Positions 1-14,605 of a DNA stretch of 64,000 bases are shown piece by piece. Each line of letters starts with the position of its first letter. Position 1 is the stretch's first letter. A program made the translations under genes and the position numbers. The stretch spans positions 274,814 through 338,813 of the forward strand of contig JAKLDG010000001.1 in assembly GCA_022703645.1 (NCBI GenBank), in the 5' to 3' direction. This stretch comes from Patescibacteria group bacterium (lineage in GTDB: Bacteria; Patescibacteriota; JACPGU01). The notes under the pieces were generated by a model. The model did no database searches and was not told the origin of the DNA. It saw only the letters and a program-made list of their open reading frames with translations.

Positions 1-1033
1 TGTCCAGTTTATTCATAAATCCAAGTGAATGTGACGAGAATATTAATTGAGCCTTTTTATTTTTATCTTCATCAATAAAATAACCAATAAGTTTATTTAA
101 AGCTTCCGGATGAAAACCAGTTTCAAGCTCGTCAATAATAACAACATTATTATTTTTCAATGCACTTAGGATATTTGCCATTACAAAGAATAATGATTTA
201 GTGCCTCTCGATTCATATCCAAAATCCAGTTTGTTATTTTCTGTTTTAGTAGAGTGAACGCCTTGTACGGTTATAGAGAATCCCTTTTCTCTGACATCTT
301 CTTTGATTTCAAAACTATTTAACCCAATATCAAAATGGCGAATAAAATTTTCTACTTCTTTTTTTAGTTCAGAATCACTTAAATAAACCTTAAGTGCATC
401 AATTTGATGCATAACATGATTTATTTCGCCTCTTTCATTAATGTTGGTTTTAAATCCTAAGAAATAATCATAAACACTGTTTATGATATCAACGCTATAA
501 GTAGATTTCTTTATAAAGGCTATAAAAGAAACATCCTCTCTTATTTTTGGAAGAGCACTTATAGAAATATTCTTAAAATAATTTTCATTTAACGAATCTA
601 TAGTGCTTAATTGGCGCGAGAATATTTTTATTTTTTTTGAACCCGCTTGGATTGCTTTTATGTATAGGGATTCTTTTGTGATAATGTCTTTTTTTATTGA
701 GAAGTCATAAAAAAACACATTATTATTATGCTCGAATTCAACATAAAAATTTGATAACTTATCATTACCAAAAAAGGTTTTGAAGGCAATGCCTGGCATA
801 AGAGGGAATTCATCATTTATATTTCTGCATACAAAAAACTTTAGAAAACTAAAGAATCTCATGACATTTGTTTTACCCGATGCATTGCCACCAATAAAAC
901 CAGCAATCTTTGTTATTTGGTCGTCAGTCTTCGACTGATAATAGTCGTAAGTTTTTTTCTTTTTCGCTAGAAAACTAATTTCTTGCTCCTTGTTGAAGGA
1001 ATAAAAATTACTAAACTTTACCTTTCTTATCAT
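1..1033 (-). CDS. AAA-family ATPase (AAA_15/AAA_21-like), 3' end beyond window
   Basis: Minus-strand translation from ATG at 1031-1033 gives MIRKVKFSNFYSF...IGGNASGKTN (Walker A GxNxSGKT), later ...VIIDELETGFHPEA (Walker B-like DE plus HP). The reading frame stays open to the window edge. Confidence 0.5.
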   Translation of the reverse strand, partial: MIRKVKFSNFYSFNKEQEISFLAKKKKTYDYYQSKTDDQITKIAGFIGGNASGKTNVMRFFSFLKFFVCRNINDEFPLMPGIAFKTFFGNDKLSNFYVEFEHNNNVFFYDFSIKKDIITKESLYIKAIQAGSKKIKIFSRQLSTIDSLNENYFKNISISALPKIREDVSFIAFIKKSTYSVDIINSVYDYFLGFKTNINERGEINHVMHQIDALKVYLSDSELKKEVENFIRHFDIGLNSFEIKEDVREKGFSITVQGVHSTKTENNKLDFGYESRGTKSLFFVMANILSALKNNNVVIIDELETGFHPEALNKLIGYFIDEDKNKKAQLIFSSHSLGFMNKLD

Positions 1034-1119
1034 ATTTTTTGAGTTATTATTATTTCTCTAGCTAAGTATATCAGTGATTAAATAATAAGTCAAGTTAATA
1101 CAAAATATTGTATTAAGTC

Positions 1120-1480
1120 CTTAGATAGTCATTCATCTCACGGCTTTGCCGTGCCCCCTCTATAATATAAAAAATCAAATTCGTTTTCCCCTATATAAAA
1201 AAGCCTATCAATATTCCTTATTATAAGAAAAATATTTATTGAATTGCGTATAATGTCTCAGTATATCTGATGTTTCGCTCGATACCAAATTAGTTGAAAA
1301 TAGAAGAGCAGAAATATGGACGAACCCCGAGCCGAGGGGTGAGTCAGATATACTGTGTTAGGCGAGGGATTGATTTACTTACATTATTGAATATATATAA
1401 AAAGTAATCAAGAGCGCAGCGCCCCCTTGAGTTTCAAAAAACAAACTTCTCCTTTATTTAAGAGCTCTTTTGGGATTTTT
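1120..1480 (+). repeat. Modular island repeat, copy A (h1 hairpin 1126-1165; three-way-junction core 1250-1362; reversed AAGAGCTCTT module 1414-1480)
   Basis: Core has stem cagtatatctg/cagatatactg, CTGATGT junction, variable hairpin, AATATGG, a GAGCGA-like box and a GTGTTA tail. It is one of 10 copies. Confidence 0.85.
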
Positions 1481-1572
1481 ATTTTAATTGTTAAACAAGG
1501 ATTAATTTTACAGTTAATGTCAAATATGATAAAATGTGGAAAGAAAAAAAGAAAGGAGCGTGACCTTAACAA

Positions 1573-1958
1573 TGGATAATATGACAGCAGTTGTCTGGGC
1601 AAACAGAACGGAGAGAAGAATCTCCCAAAAAGACCTTCAGAAGATAATAAAGGATCATCTTCGCGAACTTGCGGATATGTATAACAAGTTCACGGACGCC
1701 AGTGATTTCACAAATAATGGCATGGATGTTATAGCCAAAGAAATCAGCGAACGCTTAAAAACCCTCATCGTAACAGGTGGCAACCAGATGGTGTCGGTTT
1801 CGGCGAGCGAAGATGATGTTTCAATAGCGCTCATAGAAATGAGCAAAGAAGGATTCTTCGAGGGCGGGCCGACCGGGTTTTTGGTGGTTGATGTGAAGGG
1901 AAGCCTTACGGAGTTCAAGCTGAAGACGGGAGTCAGAACGAAAACTCGATACGAATAA
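1573..1958 (+). CDS. Hypothetical protein (cassette 1; ~50% GC)
   Basis: ORF 1536..1958. An ATG at 1573 follows the RBS-like gaaaggagcg. GC is clearly higher than the flanks. It is followed by a terminator hairpin and T-run at about 1995-2025. Confidence 0.5.
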
Positions 1959-2017
1959 GTTTTCACACGCAATTCATTACACACAATGTCGAAGCTGGCC
2001 GCTGAGGTCGGCTTTTT

Positions 2018-2215
2018 TTCTTTCCCAAAAATCCCAAAAGAGCTCTAATTAAAATATAAAAAAGTTTGTTTTTGAAATTTCGCCTAATGTTTCGGTATAT
2101 CTGATGTCTAGGCTCGCTACCCAATTAAGTTGATGTAGGAAGAGCATAGATATGGGCGCAGGTTTGCGACTTAGCGAACCGTAGCCAGATATACCGTGTT
2201 ATGTGACGTCATGAA
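2018..2215 (+). repeat. Modular island repeat, copy B (forward AAGAGCTCT module 2018-2085; core 2085-2205)
   Basis: Core stem cggtatatctg/cagatataccg, CTGATGT, hairpin, GATATGG, GTGTTA. Confidence 0.85.
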
Positions 2216-2246
2216 AAATTCTTAATTCGACGATTTTAGTCGAATT

Positions 2247-2273
2247 TTAATCAGGGCAGATTTATTTTTTTAT
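2247..2273. repeat. Left 27-bp terminal inverted repeat flanking the cassette-2 methyltransferase gene
   Basis: ttaatcagggcagatttatttttttat is the exact reverse complement of 3058-3084. Confidence 0.9.
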
Positions 2274-3034
2274 TTCTTGGTTATTATGATTAAGTCGTCC
2301 TTAAAATCTAAGTAATTATTCCTTTGATGTTTTATGATGTTGGCTAAAAACTTCTTTACTTCTGTTGCAGTTGGGAGGGTGTTAGTGTTATGTATAAACC
2401 TATAGTAGTTCTTCAAATCAAAGTTTATTTTCCCGCTCAATATATCGCCCACATACATTCGCATTTTGTAGCGCTTTGTTTTTACAGAAAAGCCCTGTTT
2501 TTTATAAAAATCCGAAATATATTCCGAATAATTAAACTTTGGATACACTTGTTTTATAGCAATGTTATAGTGGTCACTTTCTTCAGGTAAGGTTAATATC
2601 AAAAGCTTACCTTTTTTCTTCAACAAGTCAGTCAGTTTTAACAACTGCTCTTGATAACTCTTTTCATCGGATGCCCAGTAATAATTCGTGTGAGAGGTAA
2701 AAATATAATCATATTTTTCATCGGTTTTTAGTTTGGATAGGGGTGCAGTGAATAGCTTTCCTATATTATTCTCGGGCGATAAAAATGTTTTCGCGTACGA
2801 CAGAGCTTTTTTGTTCGGTTCCAATAGATCGCATGAATAATCATACTCCAATCTGTCTAATATCTGTTTTGTAGTATGACCTTCGCCACATCCAATATCT
2901 AAAATCTTTCCACCTTTTATCTCTTTAACTATACCAAATACAATACCGAACCAGTCTTCGGTTAAGGCTCTGATATATATATTCTCATATACTTCTGCGA
3001 ATTGTTTTTCTCCCCAAAAATCCCATTTTGTCAT
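2270..3034 (-). CDS. Class I SAM-dependent methyltransferase (cassette 2)
   Basis: 254 aa with motif I ILDIGCGEGHTT. It is bounded by perfect 27-bp inverted repeats. Confidence 0.65.
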   Translation of the reverse strand: MTKWDFWGEKQFAEVYENIYIRALTEDWFGIVFGIVKEIKGGKILDIGCGEGHTTKQILDRLEYDYSCDLLEPNKKALSYAKTFLSPENNIGKLFTAPLSKLKTDEKYDYIFTSHTNYYWASDEKSYQEQLLKLTDLLKKKGKLLILTLPEESDHYNIAIKQVYPKFNYSEYISDFYKKQGFSVKTKRYKMRMYVGDILSGKINFDLKNYYRFIHNTNTLPTATEVKKFLANIIKHQRNNYLDFKDDLIIITKK

Positions 3035-3057
3035 AAATATATGTATTTTATTATATC

Positions 3058-3084
3058 ATAAAAAAATAAATCTGCCCTGATTAA
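3058..3084. repeat. Right 27-bp terminal inverted repeat (partner of 2247-2273)
   Basis: ataaaaaaataaatctgccctgattaa. Confidence 0.9.
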
Positions 3085-3109
3085 TTTTGCGTGAGCTACG
3101 CAAAAAAGA

Positions 3110-3441
3110 ATTTTTTATTATGTCACATAATGTCTCCGAGTATCTGATGTCTTTGATTTCCTTCAATATTACATTAAATATAAAAGGAAAGCAAAGATAT
3201 GGGTTGAGCGACGGCAGGAGCGAACCAGATACTCGGTGTTGGGCGACCCGAACGAGCTATTCACTTTATTAAATGTAAAAAGCGAGTGAGAGTGCAACGC
3301 GGTGCAAACGTCCATTTTCTTTTTCCTTTATTTATTGCTGGCTGTAACCACTCATAGTATTAGTAATTATAAGAAAATTTTGCTTCTCCATTTTTGGGCG
3401 AGGTCAGAGGGGATTCAGGGGTGAATGACCGAAGCCCAAAA
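3110..3441 (+). repeat. Modular island repeat, copy C (core 3125-3245; tail module; GGGG-loop hairpin 3392-3441)
   Basis: Core stem ccgagtatctg/cagatactcgg, a compensatory variant of copy A. The 3' module is ttttgggcgaggtcagaggggattcaggggtgaatgaccgaagcccaaaa. Confidence 0.85.
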
Positions 3442-3533
3442 TCATAAATGTTTTCAAAAAAATGTTATTTAAGGTATAATATTTGTTGAACAATAAGTTG
3501 TACCCTAAAAAACGAAAAAAGGAGGTGGTGGTT

Positions 3534-4403
3534 GTGATAAAGTTTTCCAATGGTCATGCCTTTGAATACATGACAGCAAGTGGTGCGTTGGGTTTCGACG
3601 GAAAAGGTTGGCCATGGGAAAAACCGTGGCACTGGCTCGGACTTTTTGACCCGACACTCTTTACTTCGGTAACCAAAACATTGACGCTTCAACCAAGGGA
3701 AGGAAATCTGCGGTGGTATAATCCGCTCCGATGTTTGCGGTTCGTCAGCGGTGGGGTCGTCAATGCAGTTGGTTTGTCAAATCATGGCGTTGATTGGTGG
3801 TGCAATAAGATTGGTCCATCAGTCACTTCCAAAAAAATTCCTTTGGTCGCTTCAATTTTTGGGGAACCAGAGGAATTAGTAGAAATGGCAAGAATGCTGG
3901 ACGGTTTTGACTTGGTCGGACTGGAAATCAATGCATCATGTCCGAACACTGAAACTTGCATTCTGCAAGATACTACGAGAGTAATTGCAAGTTGCGAAGC
4001 GGTCAAAACCAATTCACGCCTACCACTGATTCTGAAAGTATCAGTTACTCACGATGTTCCACGAATCACGAAAGAGGTCGAGGGTCTCATTGACGCAATT
4101 TCGATCAATAGCGTTCCTTGGTCAATGGCTTTTCCAAATCGCAGAAGCCCTCTCGAAAATCTCGGAAACGGTGGCGTATCAGGTAAAGTTGCCCAACCGT
4201 TCACGTGGGGCTTGGTCAAAAAAATTACCGAATTAACAAGTATTCCGGTAATCGGACCGAGCGTTTGGGACTTCGACGACCTCGAAAAAGTCAGAAATTT
4301 TGGTGCGAAGGCCGTCAGTTTTGGTTCTGTCTTTCTGTATCGTCCGTGGAGTCCGACGCTGTATGTTCGGAAAGAACAAAAATTCAAACGATTAAGGGTA
4401 TAG
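3534..4403 (+). CDS. Dihydroorotate dehydrogenase-family TIM-barrel flavoprotein (PyrD-like; cassette 3)
   Basis: NAVGLSNHGVDWW and LEINASCPN, the class-1 DHOD active-site Cys motif. The likely start is GTG at 3534 after GGAGGTG; the ORF track began at an upstream TTG. GC is about 47%. A terminator sits at 4404-4440. Confidence 0.55.
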   Translation: MIKFSNGHAFEYMTASGALGFDGKGWPWEKPWHWLGLFDPTLFTSVTKTLTLQPREGNLRWYNPLRCLRFVSGGVVNAVGLSNHGVDWWCNKIGPSVTSKKIPLVASIFGEPEELVEMARMLDGFDLVGLEINASCPNTETCILQDTTRVIASCEAVKTNSRLPLILKVSVTHDVPRITKEVEGLIDAISINSVPWSMAFPNRRSPLENLGNGGVSGKVAQPFTWGLVKKITELTSIPVIGPSVWDFDDLEKVRNFGAKAVSFGSVFLYRPWSPTLYVRKEQKFKRLRV

Positions 4404-4446
4404 TGGCACCCTGTCATAAATGACGAAGCCACTTTTTATTTTCCCC

Positions 4447-4834
4447 TTAAATAGTCCTTCATCTCACAGCTTTGCTGTGCCCCCTATAAATAAAATAAAA
4501 AAGCAAAATTTTCCCTTTGTTAGAAGAAAATAAATATTCAGTCATCACAAACCTTGCCAGCAAAATATAAGAAAAGAAAATGTATGTCGCCCAATGTTTC
4601 CGAGTATCTGATGTTGCTGATTATTTCTACCTTTATTTTATTATATAAAAGAAAAATCAGCAATATGGGTTGAGGGGCGAGCCGAGCCCCGAACCAGATA
4701 CTCGGTGTTAGGCGAGGGTTCATTTCCCCTTCATTATTAGATTAAATATAAAAGGGGGAATGAAAGCGCAGCGCCCCCTTGAGTTTCAAAAAACAAACGT
4801 CACCTCTATCTAAGAGCTCTTTTGGGATTTTTTG
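4447..4834 (+). repeat. Modular island repeat, copy D (h1 hairpin 4450-4493; core 4592-4712; reversed AAGAGCTCTT module 4766-4834)
   Basis: Core stem ccgagtatctg/cagatactcgg. Its internal hairpin is ttgctgattatttct...agaaaaatcagcaa. Confidence 0.85.
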
Positions 4835-4860
4835 GCTCTGGCGAATTGACCAAAAAAAGC

Positions 4861-4889
4861 TTGACAGAGCCACAAATATGTGATACAAT
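4861..4889 (+). promoter_or_regulatory. Sigma70-like promoter for cassette 4 (TTGACA-17-TACAAT)
   Basis: ttgacagagccacaaatatgtgatacaat lies upstream of an AAGGAGG RBS. Confidence 0.6.
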
Positions 4890-4939
4890 GATTATGTAAA
4901 AAATTTAATGCCCGAGTGGCATATAAGGAGGAAAGGACA

Positions 4940-5218
4940 TTGAAAACAAAGAAAGAGTTAATCGAAGAGAAAAGCGACGGTGTGTTCGGCGCTATGACAG
5001 GTCTGGTGCAGTTTGCTTCGCTGGTAAGTGATGAGGAATTCGCACTGCTGTGCGATAACATTCCCAGCGGCGAACATCTCTGGCTGGACTTCAAGAAGTA
5101 CCGCGACTCAAAGTTTGAAGGTTTCGGTATGTTGCACTATTTTCTTGGCAAGCTGGTAAAAGTCAAGCCAGAGATAGCCACGAAACTCGGGTTCGATCCC
5201 GAAACGGTTGCTCTTTAG
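4940..5218 (+). CDS. Hypothetical small protein (cassette 4; ~50% GC)
   Basis: ORF 4916..5218. TTG at 4940 is 7 nt after aaggaggaaagg. It is followed by a terminator. Confidence 0.4.
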   Translation: MKTKKELIEEKSDGVFGAMTGLVQFASLVSDEEFALLCDNIPSGEHLWLDFKKYRDSKFEGFGMLHYFLGKLVKVKPEIATKLGFDPETVAL

Positions 5219-5299
5219 TTCACACTGTACACGTCTGCGGTACAGCAATAAAACTCCGCGCTGAAATGTTCTTCGGAACAAATCGGCCACGGAGTTTTT

Positions 5300-5672
5300 T
5301 TCTTTCCCAAAAATCCCAAAAGAGCTCTAATTAAAATATAAAAAAGTTTGTTTTTTGAAATTTCGCCTAATGTTTCGGTATATCTGATGTTTCAGCTCGA
5401 TACCAAATTAGTTGATAAAAGAAGAGCAGAAATATGGACCGAGCGAGGGCACGAGCGAGTCAGATATACTGTGTTACCCGACCCGAGCATTTCTTTCATC
5501 TTTATTATATGTAAAAGAATGCGAGAGTGCAACGGGGCAAGCCCCCCCAAGGGCGCAGCGTGTATCTTTCGCTCATTGTTATTAGATTGAACACTTAAAA
5601 GAGATTCAAAACAGAATTATTCCATTTTTGGGCGAGGTCAGAGGGGCAGGGGTGAATGACCGAAGCCCAAAA
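5300..5672 (+). repeat. Modular island repeat, copy E (forward AAGAGCTCT module 5300-5368; core 5368-5478; tail; GGGG-loop hairpin 5626-5672)
   Basis: The most complete copy. The core is near-identical to copies G and H. Confidence 0.85.
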
Positions 5673-5685
5673 CCTTAAATGAATT

Positions 5686-6333
5686 TTATTTTTTCTGTCC
5701 GAAGTTAAGTTTGCGAATTACATTGAAATGCATACTTTCGTCAGGAACAATATAAACAAGACCATCGCATAAAAATTCTCCTGCGCTTGTTTTATCTTCC
5801 AATTCTTTCAATAAATCTGCGGTTTCTTCTTTCGAAATGAATTCTGCAATCGTCATGTGCGGGTTGAACGGAAATCTTCTTGGAACAGCTTCTGAAAATA
5901 ATGAAGCGCTTTCAATTTTTTCTCGTACTGCGTTTAGTTCGGTTTGATTTTCCAAAGGGAAAGCAACTCCTGGGTATGGTGGGTAATCCTTGGGTTTGCC
6001 ATAATTAATTTCGAAAGGTTTAATTTCAGAAGCAATGTTCTGCAATTCCTGCCAATCTTCTTCGGTTAATGGTTTGGGTACGGGCACCGAAATACTAATA
6101 TGTGTATCACAACTAGCCTGCGATTTAGGATCATACTTCGAGCGAAGGGAATTGACCAATGAAAGCACCGGTTCAGGCGGCATGATTAAAATGAGTCCAT
6201 AACGATATTCTTTTTCCCAATTTTCCCAATTATCAACATTTGAAACATATTCAGTAATCGGTTTATTTTTTTCAATTTGTTCATGCGCTGGGGTTGAATC
6301 GTTTTTATTCTCTGGCCAATTTTTTTCTGTCAT
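5686..6333 (-). CDS. 2H phosphoesterase (LigT/2',5'-RNA ligase-like; cassette 5)
   Basis: Two H-x-(T/S)-x motifs (CDTHISI and NPHMTI) about 80 aa apart. The N-terminus MTEKNWPE shares the MT..WP leader with cassettes 7 and 8. Confidence 0.55.
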   Translation of the reverse strand: MTEKNWPENKNDSTPAHEQIEKNKPITEYVSNVDNWENWEKEYRYGLILIMPPEPVLSLVNSLRSKYDPKSQASCDTHISISVPVPKPLTEEDWQELQNIASEIKPFEINYGKPKDYPPYPGVAFPLENQTELNAVREKIESASLFSEAVPRRFPFNPHMTIAEFISKEETADLLKELEDKTSAGEFLCDGLVYIVPDESMHFNVIRKLNFGQKK

Positions 6334-6344
6334 ATAATTATTTT

Positions 6345-6794
6345 TATTAATAAATAGTCCTTCAACTCGTAGCTTTGCTACGCCCCTCTTAAATATAAAA
6401 ATTCTGTTTTAATTTTGTTCAGGCTCAGCACAAACATTTAGAAACAAAAAAGAAAGATACATGTCTGGGTAATGTATGCGTATATCTGATGTTTTTGACT
6501 TGCTTCAATGTTAAATTAAATATAGAAAAAAGTCAAAAATATGGACGAGCGACAGCCGGAGCGAGTCAGATATACGCTGTTCTACGACCCGAAGCCCGAT
6601 ATTCAATATTTATTATATGTAAAATCGGGGTGAGAGTGCAACGCGGGCGTCAGCCGTACATTTTCTTTTTCATTATTATTTATTGCTGGCTGTAACCACT
6701 CAGAGTATTAGTTATTAAATGAAAATTTTGCTTCTCCATTTTTTGGGCGAAGGTCAGAGGGGAATTAAAGGGGTGAATGACCTGAGCCCAAAAT
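6345..6794 (+). repeat. Modular island repeat, copy F (h1 variant hairpin 6352-6388; core 6470-6585; tail; GGGG-loop hairpin 6741-6794)
   Basis: h1 is ctcgtagctttgctacg, a compensatory variant of cacggctttgccgtg. Core stem is gcgtatatctg/cagatatacgc. Confidence 0.85.
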
Positions 6795-6876
6795 CCCTTA
6801 ATGAATTTTGGACAAAAAAATATGCCCGGATTACCGCCGGGCGCGGGATCGTTTACAGAACGGAGAGCACAAGGTT

Positions 6877-7203
6877 TCATTTGTGCTCTTGATCAAAAAA
6901 ATCTTCGAAGTCTTTCAGGGTTTTGCGAAGCTTGGATTTTTTTGGTAAGGACTTTTTGCCGTGGGTTTCAATCTCGATTCTCACCGGAACTTCAAATCCT
7001 TTGGTTTTTTCCGTGAAAAACATCGTCCCACTTGTGCCGACAACATCAGCATCCACTTCTCTCAAGAAATCTCTGTTAAATAAAATGGGATGTCTTTTGC
7101 CTTTTGCATCTCCGAGAGAAACTCTGACACTGTGGGGGAGGACTTCGATAACAAGAAAGGGATATCCCTTTTGTTCTTCTGTGCTGAGGGCAGTTTTTTT
7201 CAT
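6877..7203 (-). CDS. Hypothetical protein, 108 aa (cassette 6)
   Basis: ORF only. I could not support a family assignment. Confidence 0.35.
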   Translation of the reverse strand: MKKTALSTEEQKGYPFLVIEVLPHSVRVSLGDAKGKRHPILFNRDFLREVDADVVGTSGTMFFTEKTKGFEVPVRIEIETHGKKSLPKKSKLRKTLKDFEDFFDQEHK

Positions 7204-7317
7204 AATTCAGATTCCTCGCTTCCTTTGGTTTTTTTGATATGTTAAGGTATTTCAATAATACCACAAATGTTTGGATTTGTCAATGGCTTTTTGGCACAAC
7301 AGAGCTAAAAAACCAAA

Positions 7318-7752
7318 TTAAATAGTCCTTCATCTCACGGCTTTGCCGTGCCCCCTCTATAATCAAATAAAAAAGCAAAATTTTCCCTTTGTTAGAAAAG
7401 AATAAATATTCAGTCATCACAAACCTTGCCAGCAAAATATAAGAAAAGAAAATGTATGTCGTAGAATGTCTCAGTATATCTGATGTTTCGCTCGATACCA
7501 AATTAGTTGATAAAAGAAGAGCAGAAATATGGACCGAGCGAGGGCACGAGCGAGTCAGATATACTGTGTTACCCGACCCGAGCATTTCTTTCATCTTTAT
7601 TATATGTAAAAGAATGCGAGAGTGCAACGGGGCGAAGCGTGTATCTTTCTGACTATTGATATTAGAATTAACACTTAAAAGAGAACAAAACAGAATTATT
7701 CCATTTTTGGGCGAGGTCAGAGGGGCAGGGGTGAATGACCGAAGCCCAAAAC
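7318..7752 (+). repeat. Modular island repeat, copy G (h1 hairpin 7322-7366; core 7465-7575; tail; GGGG-loop hairpin 7704-7752)
   Basis: The X-type upstream module is near-identical to 4447-4600. The core is near-identical to copy E. Confidence 0.85.
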
Positions 7753-7753
7753 C

Positions 7754-8602
7754 TTATTTAAAATATTGTGGCACCATCCCTACTTCGGCTAATTTGTTAC
7801 ATTCTATTTCCCACGATTCTTTTTCTTTTTTTGCCATTTCTAAACCCTCCCATAAATCGCTTTTAGAATCTGTGTACAAAAAATTTCTATAAATATTCGA
7901 AAAGGTTGTATGGCGAAAAGATTTTTCTCCATAGGCAACATCTCCTTGATTATCTAAAAATATTTTTTCAATATTATCAACCATCGCGTTCAAACAATGC
8001 AAGAATTCTTGTAGAAAATAAAAAGCATTTCCCATTTTGATTCTTAACTTTTGTTGATAGTCATCAAAATATTCCGGATTAAATGGTCTTGATAGAAATT
8101 GAAAGCAATCCTCCACGCCTTTTGCATCATTTGCAATTCTATCGTAAATTTTTTTTCTAAAATTCGCATCTGATTCATTCTTGGGATCACGATTTTTATC
8201 AATTATTAAAATCGCATCATTAATAATTGGTTCAACATTTTTAACAAAGTAATTTTTAGCCTCGCGCCACTTACCTTCTAATTCTTCTCTTAGTTTTGGA
8301 AATTCCGTTACTTTTATAAATCTAATGTCTTTAGAAGGGGATATGTTAAAGGTAGGATTCTTTATTATAACATCTATTGGTGGAAGCATCCTTGTTAATT
8401 CGTCAATCTTTTCACCTATTTTCTCATCACTAAATTCATTTTTATATTTTTCTAAAAATTTTTCTATATTTTTTATGGTTTTCTCTATAAATTCACTTTT
8501 TTCTGCTCTTTTTTCGACCACATTAATATTATCAACTTTGGGTTGTTCTTCTTTTAGTGGGTTAGTGTTGTCGCCTGTCGGCCATTTTATTGGATCTGTC
8601 AT
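7754..8602 (-). CDS. Hypothetical protein (cassette 7) with the shared MTDPIKWP N-terminal leader
   Basis: ORF 7754..8635 from an upstream TTG inside the repeat module. The ATG at 8602 gives MTDPIKWPTGDNTNP, followed by a Pro/Glu/Lys-rich region. Confidence 0.45.
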   Translation of the reverse strand: MTDPIKWPTGDNTNPLKEEQPKVDNINVVEKRAEKSEFIEKTIKNIEKFLEKYKNEFSDEKIGEKIDELTRMLPPIDVIIKNPTFNISPSKDIRFIKVTEFPKLREELEGKWREAKNYFVKNVEPIINDAILIIDKNRDPKNESDANFRKKIYDRIANDAKGVEDCFQFLSRPFNPEYFDDYQQKLRIKMGNAFYFLQEFLHCLNAMVDNIEKIFLDNQGDVAYGEKSFRHTTFSNIYRNFLYTDSKSDLWEGLEMAKKEKESWEIECNKLAEVGMVPQYFK

Positions 8603-8619
8603 AAGTTTATTTTTTATTA

Positions 8620-9044
8620 ATAAATAGTCCTTCAACTCGTAGCTTTGCTACGCCCCTTTTAAATATAAGAATTCTGTTTTGATTTTATTCAGGTTCAGCA
8701 TAAACATTTAGAAGAAAAAAAGAAAGATACATGTCTGGGTAATGTTTCAGTATATCTGATGTTTCAGCTCGCCACCTTATTCACTTGATAGAGAAAGAGC
8801 AGAAATATGGACCGAGCGAGGGCACGAGCGAGTCAGATATACTGTGTTACCCGACCCGAGCCCTGATACCTTATTTATTATATGCAAAGAAGGGCGAGAG
8901 TGCAACGGGGCAAGCCCCTCAAGGGCGAAGCGTGTATCTTTCTGTTCATTGTTATTAGATTTAATACTTAGAAGAGATTCAAAACAGAATTATTCAATTT
9001 TTGGGCGAGGTCAGAGGGGCAGGGGTGAATGACTGAAGCCCAAA
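8620..9044 (+). repeat. Modular island repeat, copy H (h1 variant 8624-8662; core 8740-8852; tail; GGGG-loop hairpin 8997-9044)
   Basis: Same architecture as copy F and copy E. Confidence 0.85.
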
Positions 9045-9055
9045 ACCTTGATAAT

Positions 9056-9931
9056 TTAATCCTTCTTTTTTGTAAATAAATGCACTGCATTTGGACCAGC
9101 AACACCAAAAATACCTTCATGATGTGTTTTATAACCAGATAGATCAAGAGATTGATGAAGTATAATGCATCCTTCTGGGCTTAGTACTCTATCAATTTCT
9201 TTATTTATAGCCTTAACATATTCTGGGTCTGCATCGTGCATTACACAATCGTCTATACCTGAAGCGTAAATACTAACCGAGTCATCAGGAAGTCTTCTTA
9301 AAAAGGAAAGCATATCTTCATCAGCTACTGAGGCAGGAATCCCGTGAAAATATTCTATCTTCCCTTGTGTATAGTTGCTATTCGTATTGATCAGTTCTGA
9401 TAGTGAGTTCTTTAATTCTGATTTACTTTTGTCTAATGTCTCACTAAGTTGGGAAGAGAAAAATTTATCTACACCGACATATGATTTTGCTCCCAATATG
9501 TCAAGGATGTAGTACGCATCTCTACCGCTCATACCGGCTCCTAGGTCAATTACTATTTGGTTTTTGAGATGTTCCAGCGTAGTCGCAAAGGTTGTGTTTT
9601 GTTCGTTTACTCCTGCATTACGATTTTTAAATTTTTCAATAAGCTCTCCCTCTGTCAAATCCGGATTTGCATTTTTTAAATTAACAAAAAATTTCAAAGG
9701 ATTAATCATCCATCTGAATGCACTATCAGAAAAAGATTGTGGAAGATCGTATCCAGTTTTTTTAAATTCTTTACCAATATCAGTGTTCTGTTCTTTTTCT
9801 TTGATTCCGGGAACTAGCTCTTCAACTGGTCTTAAAATACTTTCTTCTGATTCTTTTTCTACAGTGTTTTCAACTTCAATTTTTGGCTTAGGTGGTTCTG
9901 TATTTGGGTTTGGCCATTTTGGGTCTGTCAT
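9056..9931 (-). CDS. Class I SAM-dependent methyltransferase-like protein (cassette 8) with the shared MTDPKWP leader
   Basis: VIDLGAGMSGRDAYYIL is a motif-I-like sequence. The ATG at 9931 gives MTDPKWPNPNTEPP; the ORF track started at an upstream TTG inside the repeat. Confidence 0.5.
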   Translation of the reverse strand: MTDPKWPNPNTEPPKPKIEVENTVEKESEESILRPVEELVPGIKEKEQNTDIGKEFKKTGYDLPQSFSDSAFRWMINPLKFFVNLKNANPDLTEGELIEKFKNRNAGVNEQNTTFATTLEHLKNQIVIDLGAGMSGRDAYYILDILGAKSYVGVDKFFSSQLSETLDKSKSELKNSLSELINTNSNYTQGKIEYFHGIPASVADEDMLSFLRRLPDDSVSIYASGIDDCVMHDADPEYVKAINKEIDRVLSPEGCIILHQSLDLSGYKTHHEGIFGVAGPNAVHLFTKKKD

Positions 9932-9944
9932 AGATTTATTTTTT

Positions 9945-10310
9945 ACTATTAAATAGTCCTTCAACTCGTAGCTTTGCTACGCCCCTCTTAAATATAAAGA
10001 ATTCTGTTTTGAATTTCGTTAAGCTCAGTACAAGCGTTTAGAAGTAAAAAAGAAAGATACATGTTGGGTAATGTCTCATAGTATCTGATGTTGCTGATTA
10101 TTTCTACCTTGATTATATTATACAGAAGAAAAATCAGCAATATGGGTTGAGGGGCGAGCCGAGCCCCGAACCAGATACTATGTGTTAGGCGAGGGTTCAT
10201 TTCCCCTTCATTATTAGATTAAATATAAAAAGGAAATGAAAGCGCAGCGCCCCCTTGAGTTTCAAAAAACAAACTTCACCTCTATTTAAGAGCTCTTTTG
10301 GGATTTTTTG
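9945..10310 (+). repeat. Modular island repeat, copy I (h1 variant 9948-9986; core 10070-10190; reversed AAGAGCTCTT module 10240-10310)
   Basis: Core stem catagtatctg/cagatactatg, another compensatory variant. Confidence 0.85.
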
Positions 10311-10318
10311 GCTACCTA

Positions 10319-10347
10319 TTGACATTTTTTGGGAAATATGATAAGAT
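10319..10347 (+). promoter_or_regulatory. Sigma70-like promoter for cassette 9 (TTGACA-17-TAAGAT)
   Basis: ttgacattttttgggaaatatgataagat upstream of an aaaggag RBS. Confidence 0.5.
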
Positions 10348-10397
10348 TAATTATCGGTTTTTGCGGATATATAATCCAATAGAAAGGAGTAAAATCG

Positions 10398-10790
10398 ATG
10401 ATCTTTAAGAACTTACAATTGGAAACAGGCGACTTTGTTGCGTTTCAAACAGAGGCTGTTCCGCTTCCGGAAGTTCAGGCGGCTGTCATCGGTATTGAGG
10501 ATGGCGTACTCGAAGTCATGAGTACCTTGCTCGCACCATTCCAGCACAACGGGAAATTTACAGAAGACGAGGTAGGCCAAATCATGGTCGTCTATCCATC
10601 AGCGATTGCCATTCCTCGGGAGTCTCGAGGCAAAAACTTCTCTAAACACCAAGGTGTATCCGTCATCATCAAGGGCGGAGAGGAACATCGGGGTGAAGTT
10701 GTTGCTGCGTTCGACGGTATCGTCGTGGCACGCAGAAGCGATGGTGAGCTGATCACCGGCGGAGCTTCGCATTTCAATGCTGTTGCCTAA
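10398..10790 (+). CDS. Hypothetical protein, 130 aa (cassette 9; ~50% GC)
   Basis: ATG with RBS. GC is well above the flanks. A terminator follows at about 10815-10846. Confidence 0.5.
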   Translation: MIFKNLQLETGDFVAFQTEAVPLPEVQAAVIGIEDGVLEVMSTLLAPFQHNGKFTEDEVGQIMVVYPSAIAIPRESRGKNFSKHQGVSVIIKGGEEHRGEVVAAFDGIVVARRSDGELITGGASHFNAVA

Positions 10791-10842
10791 GAATCGACAG
10801 CAAGTCCTGCTAATTGAGCGCACGACCTACGGGTACGGCGCT

Positions 10843-11135
10843 TTTTTCTTCCCTAAAAATCCCAAAAGAGCTCTAATTAAAATATAAAAAAGTTTGTTTT
10901 TTGAAATTTCGCCTAACGTTTCGGCATATCTGATGTTTGCCGTAGCGTAGCGAAGGCAAATATGGGTGGAGGCTTTTGTATAAAAGCCGTAACCAGATAT
11001 GCCGTGTTATGTGATGTGCATGTTTTACTTTAATCCTGATAGCAATCGGGATTGCTCTAAAAAAGAATTTTAATTTTGTTTTTTTGTTTTGGATTTTGGG
11101 CAGAGGGGTTAGGGGTGAATGCCCAAAATCCAAAA
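10843..11135 (+). repeat. Modular island repeat, copy J (forward AAGAGCTCT module 10843-10918; core 10915-11012; GGGG-loop hairpin 11089-11129)
   Basis: Core stem cggcatatctg/cagatatgccg. The perfect hairpin is ggattttgggc-agaggggttaggggtgaa-tgcccaaaatcc. Confidence 0.85.
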
Positions 11136-11139
11136 CTCC

Positions 11140-11547
11140 TTATTCTGCTAATAATTTAAACACTAAGCTAAATATTTTTGGTGAAAAATCTTTATAAATT
11201 AACTCTCTCGTCTCGTCCTCACCAAATGACCAAAATTTACCATTAATTTCTAAACCAGTAGGATAATGACTCTCGTGAAATAATTTATTTCTTATTTCTC
11301 TTAAAGATTCTAAAAATTTAAGTTCCGCGTCATCAATTAAATCCTTTTCTTTAGCTTCTGTAATTATTCTATGAAAATTGCCGTCAATTTTATTGACAGA
11401 AAATTTTATAATCTGTTCTGACAAAACAAATAGACAAGCAAGCGCAGAAAAGTAATTTTCTTGTTCATAAGAATTTTGTGCCTCGAAACATAATTTCCCA
11501 AAAATATGGTCTCTTTCATTTATTTTTGCAATTATATCGGTATTCAT
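11140..11547 (-). CDS. Hypothetical protein, 135 aa, co-oriented with and abutting the C5-methyltransferase gene
   Basis: ORF only. Its stop is 2 nt from the methyltransferase start. Confidence 0.4.
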   Translation of the reverse strand: MNTDIIAKINERDHIFGKLCFEAQNSYEQENYFSALACLFVLSEQIIKFSVNKIDGNFHRIITEAKEKDLIDDAELKFLESLREIRNKLFHESHYPTGLEINGKFWSFGEDETRELIYKDFSPKIFSLVFKLLAE

Positions 11548-11549
11548 GT

Positions 11550-12527
11550 TTATTTCAAATCAGCCATTATTTTTTTTGCTAAATGGTGGGCAAAATTTAC
11601 TGCGACAGCATTTCCAATCATTTTATATCCGTCGGCAATATCACGATATTTAAAAATAAAATTATCAGGGAATGTTTGAATCCTTGCACATTCACGAACA
11701 GACAAGCGACGATATAAATGTTCTTTTCCGGGAACAAAAATTCTTTTATTTTGACTGATAAATTTCATTTTCGGAGCTTGGGGATGAATTGGAGCATGGC
11801 GACCACCGGCTTGAATGGTAAAAGAAGGTTCATCCCATGAGCGAACACGATTTCGCGACATATAAATTGAAGAAAAACCGCCATTCATGTATTCGTGATT
11901 TGGAATTTTTAACACATCGCCATTTGTCTTATTTTTATCTAACGCAGGTTTTGCTAAACGCAAATCATAAATAGCGTCTTTCAATACTGGTTTATATTTT
12001 TGCGGTTCTGGAAATTCAAATTTTTTCTTTAGTTTTTTATTATATCCAACAATAATGACACGCAATCTATCTTCAGGAACATCATAATCATTTGCATTTA
12101 ATAATTTGCAGGAAATTTCATATCCAGCATTTTCAAATTCTTTTATTATATTTGAAAAAGCCTCTTTGTGTTTAGGGTGAAGAATACCCGATACATTTTC
12201 TGCAAGAAAAAATTTTGGTTGTTTTTCCTTTAATAAACGAATGTAATCATAAAATAATTTTCCTCTTTTATCATTTATTCCACGTCCAGCCCCAGCCTCG
12301 CTCCAACTTTGACAAGGTGGTCCGCCAATGATTCCGTCAACATCGGGAATTTCAGAAGCAGGGACGTCGACAATACTTCTTTTATCAAGTTTTGTTTTTG
12401 GAAAATTGTGTTCAAAAGTTTCCCAAATTGTGGGGTCATATTCATTTGCCCAGACGACATGAAAACCAGCTTTTTCAAAGCCTAAATCAAGTCCTCCTGC
12501 ACCTGTAAACAATGAAGCTATTTTCAT
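11550..12527 (-). CDS. DNA (cytosine-5)-methyltransferase
   Basis: Motif I FTGAGGLDLGF, motif IV GGPPCQSWS, ENV. Confidence 0.9.
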   Translation of the reverse strand: MKIASLFTGAGGLDLGFEKAGFHVVWANEYDPTIWETFEHNFPKTKLDKRSIVDVPASEIPDVDGIIGGPPCQSWSEAGAGRGINDKRGKLFYDYIRLLKEKQPKFFLAENVSGILHPKHKEAFSNIIKEFENAGYEISCKLLNANDYDVPEDRLRVIIVGYNKKLKKKFEFPEPQKYKPVLKDAIYDLRLAKPALDKNKTNGDVLKIPNHEYMNGGFSSIYMSRNRVRSWDEPSFTIQAGGRHAPIHPQAPKMKFISQNKRIFVPGKEHLYRRLSVRECARIQTFPDNFIFKYRDIADGYKMIGNAVAVNFAHHLAKKIMADLK

Positions 12528-12529
12528 AA

Positions 12530-13534
12530 TTATTCGTGACTAATATTTAGTGTGTTTTTAAATAATTTTTTCGGCGATTTCAAAAGATTTATATCAAATT
12601 TCAAAGACGATTCAACCCTAGAACTTGCATTATGAATACGAAAAGAAAGAGTCCAATCATTATTCATGGTTACTATTGCCGTTGTTTGGCTATCGGTTTT
12701 GAAACAAATATCAACAATTTCTGTTGGCAATGGAACTTTTGGTGTTTTGTATTTTGGAAGAATGTCGTTAAAAGGCAAATTTAATGTTCCATTCAAATTG
12801 TATGCGTGTATTTCTACACTATTTTTGCCTTTAATAACTTTGTAAAAATCTTTATTTCCAACGAGGTATGCAACTAGATTAGACGCTACTTTTTTAGAAT
12901 CTTTTTTGTATAGATTTTTCAGTTCTTTAATAAAGGCTTTTAAAATTGGAATATAGATTGATGAATGATAATCACCAAGCTCACTCCACTTTTTCTTTGC
13001 ACCGCTTTCTTTTCTAATTTTCTCTAAATTGTTAAAAATAGGTGTTACTGTTTCAAAATATTCTTTTGATGTTTTTATTCCAAGCCACTTTTCACCAAAA
13101 TCAATATTTGAAGATAGTCGGGAATGCTTTACTGCATGATGATTGTTTTTGGCCGATACTCCAATTTCCCATTTTTGCAACAAACGAATTGCTAAAACAT
13201 CTCTAACATCGCCTGATTTTCCATGTTGATCGGATAAAATTTCAAGTTGCAGAATATCATCTTTACCAACATCATTTGTGAGGCGTGGCTCTATATCCAT
13301 TAGAAAATTAACCGCAAAACTAGCGGTGAGTAAATAATCACTTTTTTCTGTTTCGCTCACATTTTCAAAACATCCTTTTGCAATTTCAAAAGAAGAATTT
13401 TTGATAACTTCAAGATTTGTTTTATCTTTCAATTTTTCTTCAAATTGAACAAGTAAAGCATATTCAAAAGATTTTCCAGTTGTCATTTGTCTTGATGCAG
13501 TAGTAGTCATATTTTTATTATTACATTTTTCCAT
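12530..13534 (-). CDS. Putative cognate Type II restriction endonuclease
   Basis: 334-aa ORF directly upstream of and co-oriented with the C5-methyltransferase gene. I recognise no motif, so the call rests on context only. Confidence 0.35.
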   Translation of the reverse strand: MEKCNNKNMTTTASRQMTTGKSFEYALLVQFEEKLKDKTNLEVIKNSSFEIAKGCFENVSETEKSDYLLTASFAVNFLMDIEPRLTNDVGKDDILQLEILSDQHGKSGDVRDVLAIRLLQKWEIGVSAKNNHHAVKHSRLSSNIDFGEKWLGIKTSKEYFETVTPIFNNLEKIRKESGAKKKWSELGDYHSSIYIPILKAFIKELKNLYKKDSKKVASNLVAYLVGNKDFYKVIKGKNSVEIHAYNLNGTLNLPFNDILPKYKTPKVPLPTEIVDICFKTDSQTTAIVTMNNDWTLSFRIHNASSRVESSLKFDINLLKSPKKLFKNTLNISHE

Positions 13535-13662
13535 TTAAAAATAAATCGTTTTCGTAGCGGAGCGGAGAAAACACCTTATACCCCTTTCTAATTAATAAAA
13601 AACAAAATTTAAATTCTTTTTTAGAGCTGGGCGATAGCCCAAAAGTAAAACATGCATTTCAC

Positions 13663-13709
13663 ATAACTCGTTTTTATCTGAATATATTTCAGATAAAAAC
13701 GAGTTACGG
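13663..13709. promoter_or_regulatory. Perfect 19-bp-arm palindrome in the divergent region between the REase and recombinase genes
   Basis: taactcgtttttatctgaa-tatat-ttcagataaaaacgagtta. It contains the ATCTGA/TCAGAT boxes also present in the repeat cores. Confidence 0.5.
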
Positions 13710-13783
13710 TAGTTTATGCGGTTATTGTGTACATTCTTCAACATCTTTGATATTATCGATTTAATATTATCATTTTTTATTAT

Positions 13784-14605
13784 ATGCAACAATACTTAGA
13801 TAGATTGTCGCAGGAATTACGATTAAGAAATTATAGTAACAGCACGGTCGAAAGTTACCTGACGTGCGTGAAATATTATTTTTATTTTGTGGAAAGAAAT
13901 GGCGCAAGAATTGAAGATGGTGATCAGGATATTCTCAAATCATTTCTTCTTGATAAACATAACAAAGGGTCCTCATCACAAACGATCAATCTTTATCTCA
14001 ATGCGATAAAGTTTTTTTATCGGGAAATCATGAAATCACCACAAAGTATCGATATTAGATTTGCCAAGAAATCAAATAAGCTGCCGGTAGTCCTCTCGCA
14101 TGATGAGATTGAAAGAATTATTGAAGTAACAAAAAATTCAAAGCATCGGCTCATTATTTCGCTGAGCTATGGCGCAGGGTTGAGAGTGAGCGAAATCATA
14201 AGTTTAAAAGTTAAAGACTTGGATTTGGATAGCTTAACGATTCACCTAAAAAATGCGAAGGGGAAAAAGGACAGAATTACGGTTTTGCCGGTAAAATTAG
14301 TTAATTCTTTGCGCAATGCGGTTGCGGGCAAGGATATTGATGATCTGGTTTTTGAAAGCGAGAGAGGCGGGGGATTGACCGATCGGACTGCACAGGTCAT
14401 TTTCAACAATGGGTTGAGGAGAGCGGGAATCAAAAAAGAAGCGACATTCCACTCGCTTCGCCATTCGTTCGCTACACATCTGCTTGAAAACGGTACAGAC
14501 ATTCGTTACATTCAAGAATTGCTTGGACATCAAAATATTCGAACGACTCAAATTTATACAAAAGTGACAAACCCGGCGGTACGCAATATAAAAAGCCCGC
14601 TGTAA
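13784..14605 (+). CDS. Tyrosine site-specific recombinase (XerC/D-like phage-integrase family)
   Basis: AGLRVSE (catalytic Arg), HSLRHSFATHLL (H-x-x-R), LGHQNIRTTQIYTKV (nucleophilic Tyr). At 273 aa it is shorter than classical IntI. Confidence 0.85.
   Translation: MQQYLDRLSQELRLRNYSNSTVESYLTCVKYYFYFVERNGARIEDGDQDILKSFLLDKHNKGSSSQTINLYLNAIKFFYREIMKSPQSIDIRFAKKSNKLPVVLSHDEIERIIEVTKNSKHRLIISLSYGAGLRVSEIISLKVKDLDLDSLTIHLKNAKGKKDRITVLPVKLVNSLRNAVAGKDIDDLVFESERGGGLTDRTAQVIFNNGLRRAGIKKEATFHSLRHSFATHLLENGTDIRYIQELLGHQNIRTTQIYTKVTNPAVRNIKSPL

Follow-up and report, generated by a model that had tools for sequence, protein, structure and literature searches.

A window of 64,000 nucleotides (nt), that is, the whole stretch of DNA analyzed here, was taken from the chromosome of a Patescibacteria group bacterium (assembly GCA_022703645.1, contig JAKLDG010000001.1, positions 274,814 to 338,813 of the forward strand). 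Its first 11,100 nt hold ten direct copies of a 95- to 120-nt element, hereafter called the core, all on the + strand and with a single gene between neighboring cores. Four of these genes lie on the + strand and six on the - strand, and their products include a methyltransferase, a DHODH-like protein, a LigT-like protein, an AAA/AbiEii-like ATPase, and several hypothetical proteins. The array is followed on its right by a HaeIII-type restriction-modification pair, a gene for a 273-aa tyrosine recombinase, a RAYT-like gene, obg, rpoB/C, and a ribosomal protein operon; the assignment of the window to a bacterial chromosome rests on the presence of obg, rpoB/C, and the ribosomal protein operon beside the array. 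A search of the window for tRNA and tmRNA genes found none.

The ten cores, each counted from an AAY to a GTT triplet (Table 1), lie within a few nucleotides of the places given in the original prediction, which had described them as copies of a folded repeat with a compensated closing stem. The motif TATCTGATGT-N(20-50)-ATATGG-N(15-45)-CAGATA-N5-TGTT matched 10 times in the window and 0 times in 100 shuffles, and a covariance model run over the remaining 53 kb of the window detected no additional core. As had been claimed, ATGT, ATATGG, and the TATCTG/CAGATA arms are invariant in 10/10 window copies. The flanking consensus (TAATGTYTC and GTGTTA) is not universal, since core 6 has TAATGTATG and GCTGTTC. 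The closing stem, credited before with four variable bases, actually comprises five variable pairs plus TATCTG/CAGATA and is thus 11 bp long, and the exact complementarity reported for all ten pairs of arms holds in nine, the arms of core 5 (CGGTATATCTG / CAGATATACTG) leaving one G:T pair. Compared with core 4, core 9 shows CG->AT in both arms, which is a compensatory change, while cores 5 and 7 are 100% identical across 144 nt from hairpin 1 rightwards. Core 5 was also considered as proof of a crossover within the core; this was rejected, as one A->G change relative to core 8 explains it equally.

Table 1. Positions of the cassette array, cores, recombination site, and associated elements in the window and of one element in other loci
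Feature	Position	Strand	Description
Cassette array	1-13666	genes on both strands	At least 11 cassettes; continues past the left end of the window
Core 1	1252-1359	+	AAT-GTCT-CAGTATATCTG-ATGT-hairpin 1-ATATGG-hairpin 2-CAGATATACTG-T-GTT
Core 2	2086-2200	+	Arms CGGTATATCTG / CAGATATACCG
Core 3	3129-3240	+	Arms CCGAGTATCTG / CAGATACTCGG
Core 4	4593-4709	+	Arms CCGAGTATCTG / CAGATACTCGG
Core 5	5369-5475	+	Arms CGGTATATCTG / CAGATATACTG; sole window copy with G:T in the closing stem
Core 6	6471-6581	+	Arms GCGTATATCTG / CAGATATACGC
Core 7	7465-7570	+	Arms CAGTATATCTG / CAGATATACTG
Core 8	8741-8848	+	Arms CAGTATATCTG / CAGATATACTG
Core 9	10070-10186	+	Arms CATAGTATCTG / CAGATACTATG
Core 10	10915-11008	+	Commonest family type; TAAC, short hairpin 1, hairpin 2 GGCTTTT..AAAAGCC; 115 bits against the model
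First, recombinase-proximal cassette	11009-13666		Hypothetical 135-aa gene, HaeIII-type methylase, and endonuclease
Restriction-modification pair	11,550-13,534	-	HaeIII type
Terminal simple site (attI/dif-like)	13656-13721	+	Left arm ATTTCACATAA, junction AA|C at 13666/13667, TCGTTTT, right arm TATCTGA
Extended hairpin of simple site	13665-13705		Perfect, 17 bp
Second arm copy, TTTATGCGG	13713-13721		
Second arm copy with promoter	13710-13760 (window)		In L119, L126, L127, and L128, 60-110 nt upstream of the recombinase start
Tyrosine recombinase	13784-14605	+	273 aa, IntI-like without the IntI-specific insertion; transcribed away from the array
RAYT-like gene	14625-15152		Directly after the recombinase gene
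Chassis module 1	3395-3450, 5625-5680, 6745-6800, 7705-7760, 9000-9050, 11085-11140		
Chassis module 2	1121-1192, 4447-4518, 6350-6421, 7318-7389, 8620-8691, 9949-10020		
Inverted repeat pairs (~70 nt)	1389-1480 / 2002-2084; 4741-4832 / 5284-5367; 10217-10308 / 10830-10914		
TTTTC-GTAGCGGAGCGGA-GAAAA hairpin	13549-13571		

RNAalifold applied to 35 copies from other genomes paired ATGT with ATAT (A-T, T-A, G.T, T-A) as the base of hairpin 1 and GGN with the NCC ahead of CAGATA as the base of hairpin 2, so that the boxes between the arms, previously taken as unpaired, are junction-proximal pairs with an invariant G.T in the former, and the core is an almost perfectly paired three-way junction. 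The GAGCGA..GAGCGA box is a version of hairpin 2 with tandem G.A pairs. The internal hairpins of the original prediction do exist, and when folded as single-stranded DNA most + strand copies of the window form the three-way junction, with z-scores from -2.5 to -7.5. Folding is more stable for the + than for the - strand (-15.5 versus -13.9 kcal/mol for copy 1 and -23.5 versus -19.3 kcal/mol for copy 10), and family-wide the + strand shows 122 G:T versus 45 A:C, besides the invariant G.T in ATGT/ATAT; this bias indicates that the + strand is the folded one. Read outward from the recombinase, it is the equivalent of the integron "bottom" strand.

Outside the junction, an internal loop of 4 nt opposite 1 nt separates the AAC/GTT box from the stem in 141 of 143 cores; the 4-nt side is GTTT in 102 of these 143 and faces a T, the 5' half is longer by three bases, and no base is bulged out of the 11-bp stem. 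Pairing between the AAY and GTT triplets is seen in at least 146 of 148 model-aligned copies, the third position being C in 130 and T in 17. Of the attC-type boxes RYYYAAC/GTTRRRY, the RRRY/RYYY portion is not retained, with GTTACCC, GTTCTAC, and GTTATGT all present. As for the box itself, which is the proposed place of cleavage, AAT (TAAT/CAAT/GAAT) occurs in 9/10 window cores and AAC in 122/143 family-wide, AAC in the window being restricted to core 10 and the terminal site.

To describe the family beyond the window, 185,579 species genomes were scanned with the motif, which gave at least 118 matching stretches; the locus counts below refer to these listed matches, considered as 8-kb loci. 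Among the matches listed, nearly all were in metagenome-assembled genomes (MAGs) of Patescibacteria/candidate phyla radiation (CPR) bacteria, including Gracilibacteria, Peribacteria, Saccharibacteria, Magasanikbacteria, Uhrbacteria, Kuenenbacteria, Woesebacteria, Roizmanbacteria, and Dojkabacteria, and a few were in MAGs labeled DPANN, Altiarchaeales, Methanoregula, Gammaproteobacteria, and Bacteroidota, owing either to transfer or to misbinning. Covariance model R1 gave 195 matches (E<=0.01) in the window and 99 loci, and same-strand arrays of 3-6 copies at a spacing of 0.6-2 kb were seen in many loci (for example, L053, L021, L015, L064, L075, L039, L017, and L029). Only 1 match was obtained in 2.9 million viral contigs; the element is therefore chromosomal, and a phage origin was rejected on the same ground. 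A comparison of the window cassette proteins across loci found none shared besides the restriction-modification pair, whose cassette recurs in another Patescibacteria MAG (L069, 3666-5763) at 93% nucleotide and 98% protein identity to window positions 11140-13667.

In addition, cores near-identical to the commonest CPR core were observed under unrelated labels, namely, in L022 and L076 (Altiarchaeales), L065 (Pacearchaeota), L114 (Woesearchaeota), and L101 (Methanoregula) and likewise in L040 (Alteromonas), L060 (Melioribacteraceae), and L077 (Cloacimonas), reflecting either recent cross-phylum or cross-domain cassette transfer or misbinned CPR contigs. The recombinase found in L065 is 55% identical and conforms to the standard arrangement; that of L022 is 40% identical and arranged differently.

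The central claim of the original prediction, that the stems of a folded nucleic acid are kept by compensatory change, was borne out in 149 distinct model-aligned copies from more than 100 other MAG contigs. Standard pairs filled 97.3% of cells, compared with 80.5% after shuffling and 28-49% when partners were slid by 1-3 columns; the covariation score was 0.413, compared with 0.120 and 0.03-0.06, respectively; and double changes were found in 20/29 pairs. Covariation was strong in stems P1, P2, and P3. The conserved arms covary too, TATCTG/CAGATA being replaced by TATGCG/CGCATA in ~27 divergent copies, and the distal stems of hairpins 1 and 2 have no conserved sequence, yet covary strongly. 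In an independent count on pattern-anchored copies, the five variable arm pairs were perfect in 85 of 121 distinct copies, where 1,000 shuffles gave an expectation of 24.6 and a maximum of 37.

The cassette ends provide a second line of evidence. The original prediction had overlooked the gene-cassette context and the terminal site. A cassette consists of a core, 1-3 genes, and a terminal arm, and its genes have their own promoter-like sites (TTGACA-17-TGnTACAAT at 4,861-4,889; others at 10,319-10,347 and 7,283-7,255) as well as terminator-like sites. In 10/10 window cassettes, the bases after the GTT of core n complement those before the AAY of core n+1, as in TTATGTGAC..GTCACATAA, TTGGGCGAC..GTCGCCCAA, and TTCTACGAC..GTCGTAGAA. 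Over all loci, the window included, this end complementarity is perfect (6/6) in 13 of 34 cassettes, where shuffling expects 1.5; the two flanks of one and the same core match in merely 3/141. The restriction-modification cassette starts with GTTATGTGATGTGCATGTTTTAC and ends with GTAAAACATGCATTTCACATAA|C, a 23-nt imperfect terminal inverted repeat, and short cassettes elsewhere have terminal inverted repeats matching at 17-20 of 20 positions, their sequence specific to each cassette, with a constant two-base discrepancy (GATGT at the start versus GAAAT at the end). Ends that match yet vary in this way would make no sense unless they pair together, and such pairing requires either a single strand or a circle formed by excision.

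The position of the breakpoint could be read from the similarity between cores. Core similarity correlated with that of the right flank (r = 0.44 for hairpin 2, 0.25 for hairpin 1, and 0.17 for the 3' arm) and not with that of the left flank (r about 0); likewise, pairs with a common right flank had hairpin 2 88% identical versus a 55% baseline, and pairs with a common left flank showed no enrichment. The core thus tracks its right flank only, and a single breakpoint therefore lies at its left edge, AA|C. The array terminates at the same point, as the restriction-modification cassette ends TCACATAA|C (13,666/13,667) directly on a simple site that is not a core. Moreover, the window and L030 share a 135-nt cassette end (93% identity), which after TAAY leads into core 1 in the former and into the recombinase-proximal site in the latter. 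An unflipped integron model, with the core owned by the left cassette and the crossover at the right-hand G|TT, was rejected because the array ends X'-TAA|C on the simple site without a core and because similarity tracks the right flank only. Core orientation is uniform regardless of the strand of the flanking gene. A metagenome scan for population variants of the terminal site of the window returned 0 matches, the source contig being apparently outside that collection.

The recombinase consists of an N-terminal SAM-like domain and a catalytic domain. When it is aligned to VchIntIA, the integron integrase of Vibrio cholerae, the box II region (HSLRHSFATH..GH..IYT) is seen to be conserved. Among NCBIfam families, the integron integrase model TIGR02249 scores best (223.5 bits versus a cut-off of 265), followed by XerA (214.8 versus 220), XerC (184 versus 335), and XerD (180 versus 330). 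VchIntIA (2a3v) is also its best PDB match, both by sequence (E 2e-47) and by fold (Foldseek E 7e-16, with an AlphaFold2 model of pLDDT 84.9), with archaeal XerA next. The alignment to 2a3v is split, residues 3-181 and 203-273 of the query corresponding to 4-182 and 247-317; the 64 residues 183-246 of IntI4 are replaced by 21, the IntI-specific domain (~43 aa) is absent, and residues 181-199 of the model form short strands only. Homologues are uniformly ~270 aa long, the top 120 of 7,988 matches having 63-67% identity, and carry source annotations such as XerD or "tyrosine recombinase/integron integrase." Full-length homologues with 40-60% identity were found in ~22 of the 118 listed loci, and in ~20/22 of these the recombinase gene is located downstream of the cores and shares their strand, which is also the order seen in the window.

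Upstream of the recombinase gene by ~80 nt lies the terminal simple site, whose left arm ATTTCACATAA is the end of the last cassette and which in the window lineage is extended to a perfect hairpin (Table 1). The site is conserved ~80-130 nt upstream of the recombinase gene in 22 loci, with the cassette junction exactly after TAA and the consensus aTTTC-N4-AA|C-TCGTTnn-TATRCGAAtt, a second TATTATRCGAA copy following ~30 nt further on. Two inverted copies of an arm, TTC-N4-AA and TTATRCGAA (reverse complement TTCGYATAA), enclose a ~7-bp spacer; by inspection, left arm, spacer, and right arm read TTCGTATAA, CTCGTTA, and TTATACGAA-like in L111, L119, L126, and L128 and ATTTCACATAA, CTCGTTT, and TTATCTGAA in the window. 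Inverted arms around a short spacer are the usual layout of tyrosine-recombinase core sites, which are cleaved at the arm/spacer boundary, and the cassette junction coincides with this boundary of the simple site. The 3' half of the core hairpin, ATCAGATAT-GCCGTG-TT-N4-GA, is similarly composed of an arm like the right arm of the simple site, 6-7 spacer bases, and an outer "R" arm. The second arm copy (TTGyATATTATACGAAC) overlaps the -35 region of the TTAATGTATAAT promoter of the recombinase gene, and this overlap suggests that the recombinase may regulate its own expression.

In a reverse search, seven loci on long contigs were fetched by their recombinase homologues (L119, L120, L122, L126, L127, L128, and L129), and the simple site was present in 7/7. 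Compared with at least ten cores upstream of the recombinase in the window, L127 has three, L120 one (with a methyltransferase cassette), and L128 one (with a ChrB/MFS cassette), while L119 has none, nor any core within 10 kb, and L126 none, with rplS and a pseudouridine synthase gene upstream; in L122 and L129 the contig starts too near the recombinase gene for cores to be counted. The lone cassette of L128 (7958-9772) carries genes for an MFS transporter and for a protein with a ChrB C-terminal domain, possibly a chromate-resistance pair, and is an example of adaptive cargo. Since the module also occurs without cassettes, the recombinase and its site may be an Xer/dif system of CPR bacteria.

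On the basis of these results, we propose that the core is probably the equivalent of attC, serving as the recombination site of a gene-cassette platform that is integron-like and widespread among CPR/Patescibacteria. The observations show the architecture of the loci and the covariation, together with the strand bias, the position of the breakpoint, and the link to the recombinase; the cleavage chemistry, the exchange of single strands, and the roles of loop and junction are drawn by analogy and are envisaged as follows. In the orientation of the window, a cassette reads C-GTTT-core-T-GTT-X ... gene(s) ... X'-AA, and its + strand would fold when the cassette is circular or single stranded, X'-AAC pairing with GTT-X to form the R arm. 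This arm would extend over 16-20 bp with a constant T.T/T.G mismatch and would be followed by the asymmetric loop of GTTT opposite T, the 11-bp stem with its 4-5 variable pairs and TATCTG/CAGATA, and the conserved three-way junction at the end. The folded core would thereby imitate the double-stranded simple site adjoining the recombinase gene. Most of the covarying bases would fall in the spacer equivalent, where pairing is needed but the sequence would not be read by the protein, and hence they could vary freely with compensation. The short IntI/Xer-like recombinase would cut at AA|C and exchange a single strand, its partner being either the simple site or a second core, and the resulting junction would be resolved by replication, as happens in integrons and the CTX phage. 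We infer that the reactive strand is marked by the asymmetric loop and the conserved junction, which would replace the extrahelical L-box bases; such marking fits a recombinase that has no domain for reading extrahelical bases. The absence of this domain from the recombinase and of such bases from the sites are two differences from integrons that agree with each other.

Among known systems, integrons (IntI/attI/attC), especially sedentary chromosomal integrons with long sites of the Vibrio VCR type, resemble the present one in several respects. Direct imperfect palindromes with AAC/GTT boxes at both ends separate single-gene cassettes, the cassette start complements the inner end of its own site, crossover occurs at one edge (G|TT being AA|C on the other strand), and a distinct primary site lies beside a recombinase gene transcribed away from the array. 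The strand-biased fold, the defense genes among the cassettes, and VchIntIA as the closest solved relative of the recombinase are further likenesses. In integrons, the IntI additional domain comprises ~35-45 aa around patch III and contributes a helix that reads the extrahelical bases. The recombinase described here, by contrast, has no such domain and scores below the TIGR02249 cut-off, while its sites have a constant 4x1 spacer loop instead of extrahelical L-box bases, a sequence-conserved three-way junction at the tip instead of a free "variable terminal structure," and an R arm of 16-20 bp. The cassettes also differ in having their own promoter-like sites, a noncoding "chassis," and genes in both orientations, and the hosts are CPR/Patescibacteria. 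Because of the missing IntI domain, the score below the TIGR02249 cut-off, and the missing extrahelical L-box bases, we do not file the system as an integron, although it would work like one; the paper on archaeal integrons demands the IntI additional domain of its integrases.

Systems that use Xer-type recombinases share other features with the array. In the CTX-phage type of integrative mobile elements exploiting Xer (IMEX), a folded single-stranded attP(+) hairpin is integrated at dif by XerCD. There, too, a folded single strand mimics the duplex site of an Xer-type recombinase without an extra domain, and elements accumulate in tandem at a chromosomal site, with one-strand exchange being proposed here as well. 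The elements of the window differ in being ~1-kb gene cassettes without replication or transfer genes, 10 or more consecutively, with a three-way junction rather than a forked hairpin and with a chromosomal site that is a candidate dif. The pdif modules of Acinetobacter plasmids use plain 28-bp duplex sites in alternating orientation; they resemble the cassettes as small gene modules bounded by Xer-type sites and shuffled among replicons, whereas the sites here are ~110 nt long, folded, and in one orientation. A site adjacent to its recombinase gene is known from XerS/difSL. Together with XerH/difH and the single-recombinase Xer system of Legionellales, which was revealed by a mobile element at dif (PMC9765430), XerS/difSL resembles the present module in its ~270-aa recombinase, an inverted-arm site ~100 bp upstream, a position beside housekeeping genes, and integration of mobile DNA at the site. 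No hairpin-bearing cassette arrays have been reported from these three systems, and the recombinase described here is nearer by sequence and fold to IntI than to XerS or XerH. Searches of Rfam and of the literature, including the motif itself and the archaeal-integron supplements, did not find the system described, and we consider it rather unlikely that a description exists elsewhere.

The proximity to Xer systems leads to a rival explanation, in which the recombinase is the single housekeeping Xer of CPR bacteria, the simple site is dif, and the cassettes are minimal IMEX elements that hijack Xer through a folded dif mimic and accumulate at dif. It would refine the attC-equivalent reading rather than exclude it, and we regard it as conceivable but doubtful. 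The family is very large, strongly conserved, ~270 aa long, sometimes named XerD, and without the IntI insertion; the module occurs without cassettes beside core genes in L126 (rplS and the pseudouridine synthase gene), as well as in L119; in the simple site, two inverted arms of 9-11 bp enclose a ~7-bp spacer; the layout of site beside gene is that of XerS/difSL; and a "Cand" subgroup of Xer-related recombinases from candidate phyla has been described (Smyshlyaev et al. 2021, PMC8138268). On the other side, the recombinase scores higher to the integron-integrase model and structure than to any Xer, and, as weaker points, dnaA lies ~6 kb from the module in L119 and the GC skew is positive right of the array in the window, whose left side is beyond view, neither of which is expected at a terminus.

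The remaining rivals dispense with a folded DNA site served by the tyrosine recombinase. That the core is a classical duplex site or an inverted site pair that is never folded, its palindromy reflecting two inverted binding arms, appears unlikely: the right half of the core does read TCAGATA-N7-TTA-X, two inverted arm-like sequences spaced nearly as in the simple site, which itself resembles an ordinary duplex site, but hairpins 1 and 2 covary strongly without conserved distal sequence, the 17-20-nt cassette-specific end complementarity exceeds any binding consensus, the bias of G:T over A:C and the invariant G.T concern one strand, and the spacers of core and simple site differ, which would block two-strand exchange. 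The original prediction left open whether the folded molecule is RNA or single-stranded DNA, as in attC, and the latter option is now favored. A structured RNA from the + strand (ribozyme, processing signal, or small RNA) is very unlikely, even though covariation, a G:U-compatible strand bias, and a conserved junction would suit it as well and CUGAUG is similar to part of the hammerhead core. No Rfam match was found at the gathering score over the 64 kb or at E<=5 over positions 1-11200; the hammerhead was rejected because GAAA is not conserved and stem III is absent, as the original prediction had stated in calling the likeness superficial and in assigning the element to no known RNA family; and the cores run one way while the flanking genes run both ways with their own promoter- and terminator-like sites. 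Because orientation is fixed relative to the recombinase gene (~20/22 loci) and not to the genes, because the AAY/GTT boxes mark the exact positions of the cassette boundaries and of the terminal junction, with an attI/dif-like junction beside the recombinase, and because Rfam has no match, the core is very probably not an RNA but an attC-like DNA site. Least credible of all is mobilization of the cores as REP-like (repetitive extragenic palindromic) elements or transposon ends by the neighboring RAYT (Y1/HUH) protein, which had also been named as a candidate partner. A RAYT-like gene directly follows the recombinase gene, L119 has another Y1_Tnp gene (6192-6794) at a distance of 3 kb from its recombinase, and HUH enzymes work on folded single strands; however, none of the 118 core-bearing loci listed has a RAYT homologue, the cores (95-120 nt) are three to five times the length of REPs (20-40 nt), and they flank genes in ordered arrays ending at a site linked to a tyrosine recombinase. 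The RAYT/Y1 genes near the recombinase in the window and L119 may represent coincidence or a loose association.

Several observations weigh against the attC-equivalent reading or qualify it. The recombinase lies below the trusted cut-offs of the integron-integrase and XerA/XerC/XerD models. The alignment behind the covariation was made with a covariance model fitted to the structure, and the pattern used for collection forced the conserved boxes. One or more arm mismatches are present in about 30% of the family copies, some of which are hybrids of common arm alleles (for example, GCGTA/TGCCG and CGGCA/TACTG); therefore, pairing is selected, though not absolutely, the earlier view of the stem as always compensated was overstated, and a few arm types inherited as units, instead of many independent events, account for part of the covariation signal. 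In a complete Peribacteria genome, cores stand in at least two places far apart, at about 312-336 kb and about 1,136 kb, so that not all copies adjoin the recombinase. In L069, the restriction-modification cassette stands between a truncated core and a normal core with its terminal arm swapped; this and the arm hybrids indicate that homologous recombination among similar repeats also shapes the arrays and could mimic some of the apparent cassette mobility. Circle-like cores with complementary flanks of their own were searched for, and none was convincing; no circular cassette was found. Finally, the sequence-conserved junction is atypical for attC.

Some noncoding features of the cassettes were noted besides the cores. 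Conserved chassis modules recur around unrelated genes and in many other MAGs: module 1 (~130 nt) lies to the right of each core and has a terminal hairpin (TTTTGGGC..GCCCAAAA) resembling a bidirectional terminator, and module 2 (~135 nt) precedes the next core and has a TATAAT-like box and a 5'-leader hairpin. Core 10 and its chassis module (10906-11144) have 75-97% identity in ~50 loci. Cassettes with + strand genes are bordered by ~70-nt inverted repeats (GAGTTTCAAAAAACAAAC..AAGAGCTCTTTTGGGATTTTT and complement), which are much longer than recombination arms require. The hairpin TTTTC-GTAGCGGAGCGGA-GAAAA in the promoter-proximal chassis of - strand cassettes, also present upstream of the recombinase in L092, L078, L061, and L011, is similar to the short form of core hairpin 1 (TTGCC-GTAGCGTAGCGGA-GGCAA), and the conservation of the loop suggests a shared binding factor.

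In its widest form, our interpretation is that of a "Xer-integron," a cassette-capture platform widespread in CPR bacteria and possibly exchanged with DPANN archaea, in which a recombinase intermediate between Xer and IntI and devoid of the IntI insertion acts on folded three-way-junction sites, recombining them at the Xer-type site that belongs to the chromosome itself. The platform would be either a surviving relative of the integron ancestor or an independent invention of the same logic; this may be so, but we put it forward tentatively, as something short of probable. The prevailing view derives integron integrases from Xer-like recombinases through the gain of one inserted domain. If the interpretation is true, the origin of integrons would become open to direct test in cassette arrays whose folded sites rely on a recombinase lacking that domain. 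The compact recombinase, its defined duplex site, and the folded partner site would also be a candidate tool for DNA integration. Moreover, the core repeats could explain why CPR assemblies break at such repeats, and caution is advisable with MAG bins in which near-identical cores carry unrelated phylum labels. CPR bacteria are ultra-small symbionts with reduced genomes, and the platform, if real, would give them a dedicated gene-capture device, whose cargo, as seen here, includes restriction-modification and Abi-like ATPase genes, methyltransferases, and a possible chromate-resistance pair.

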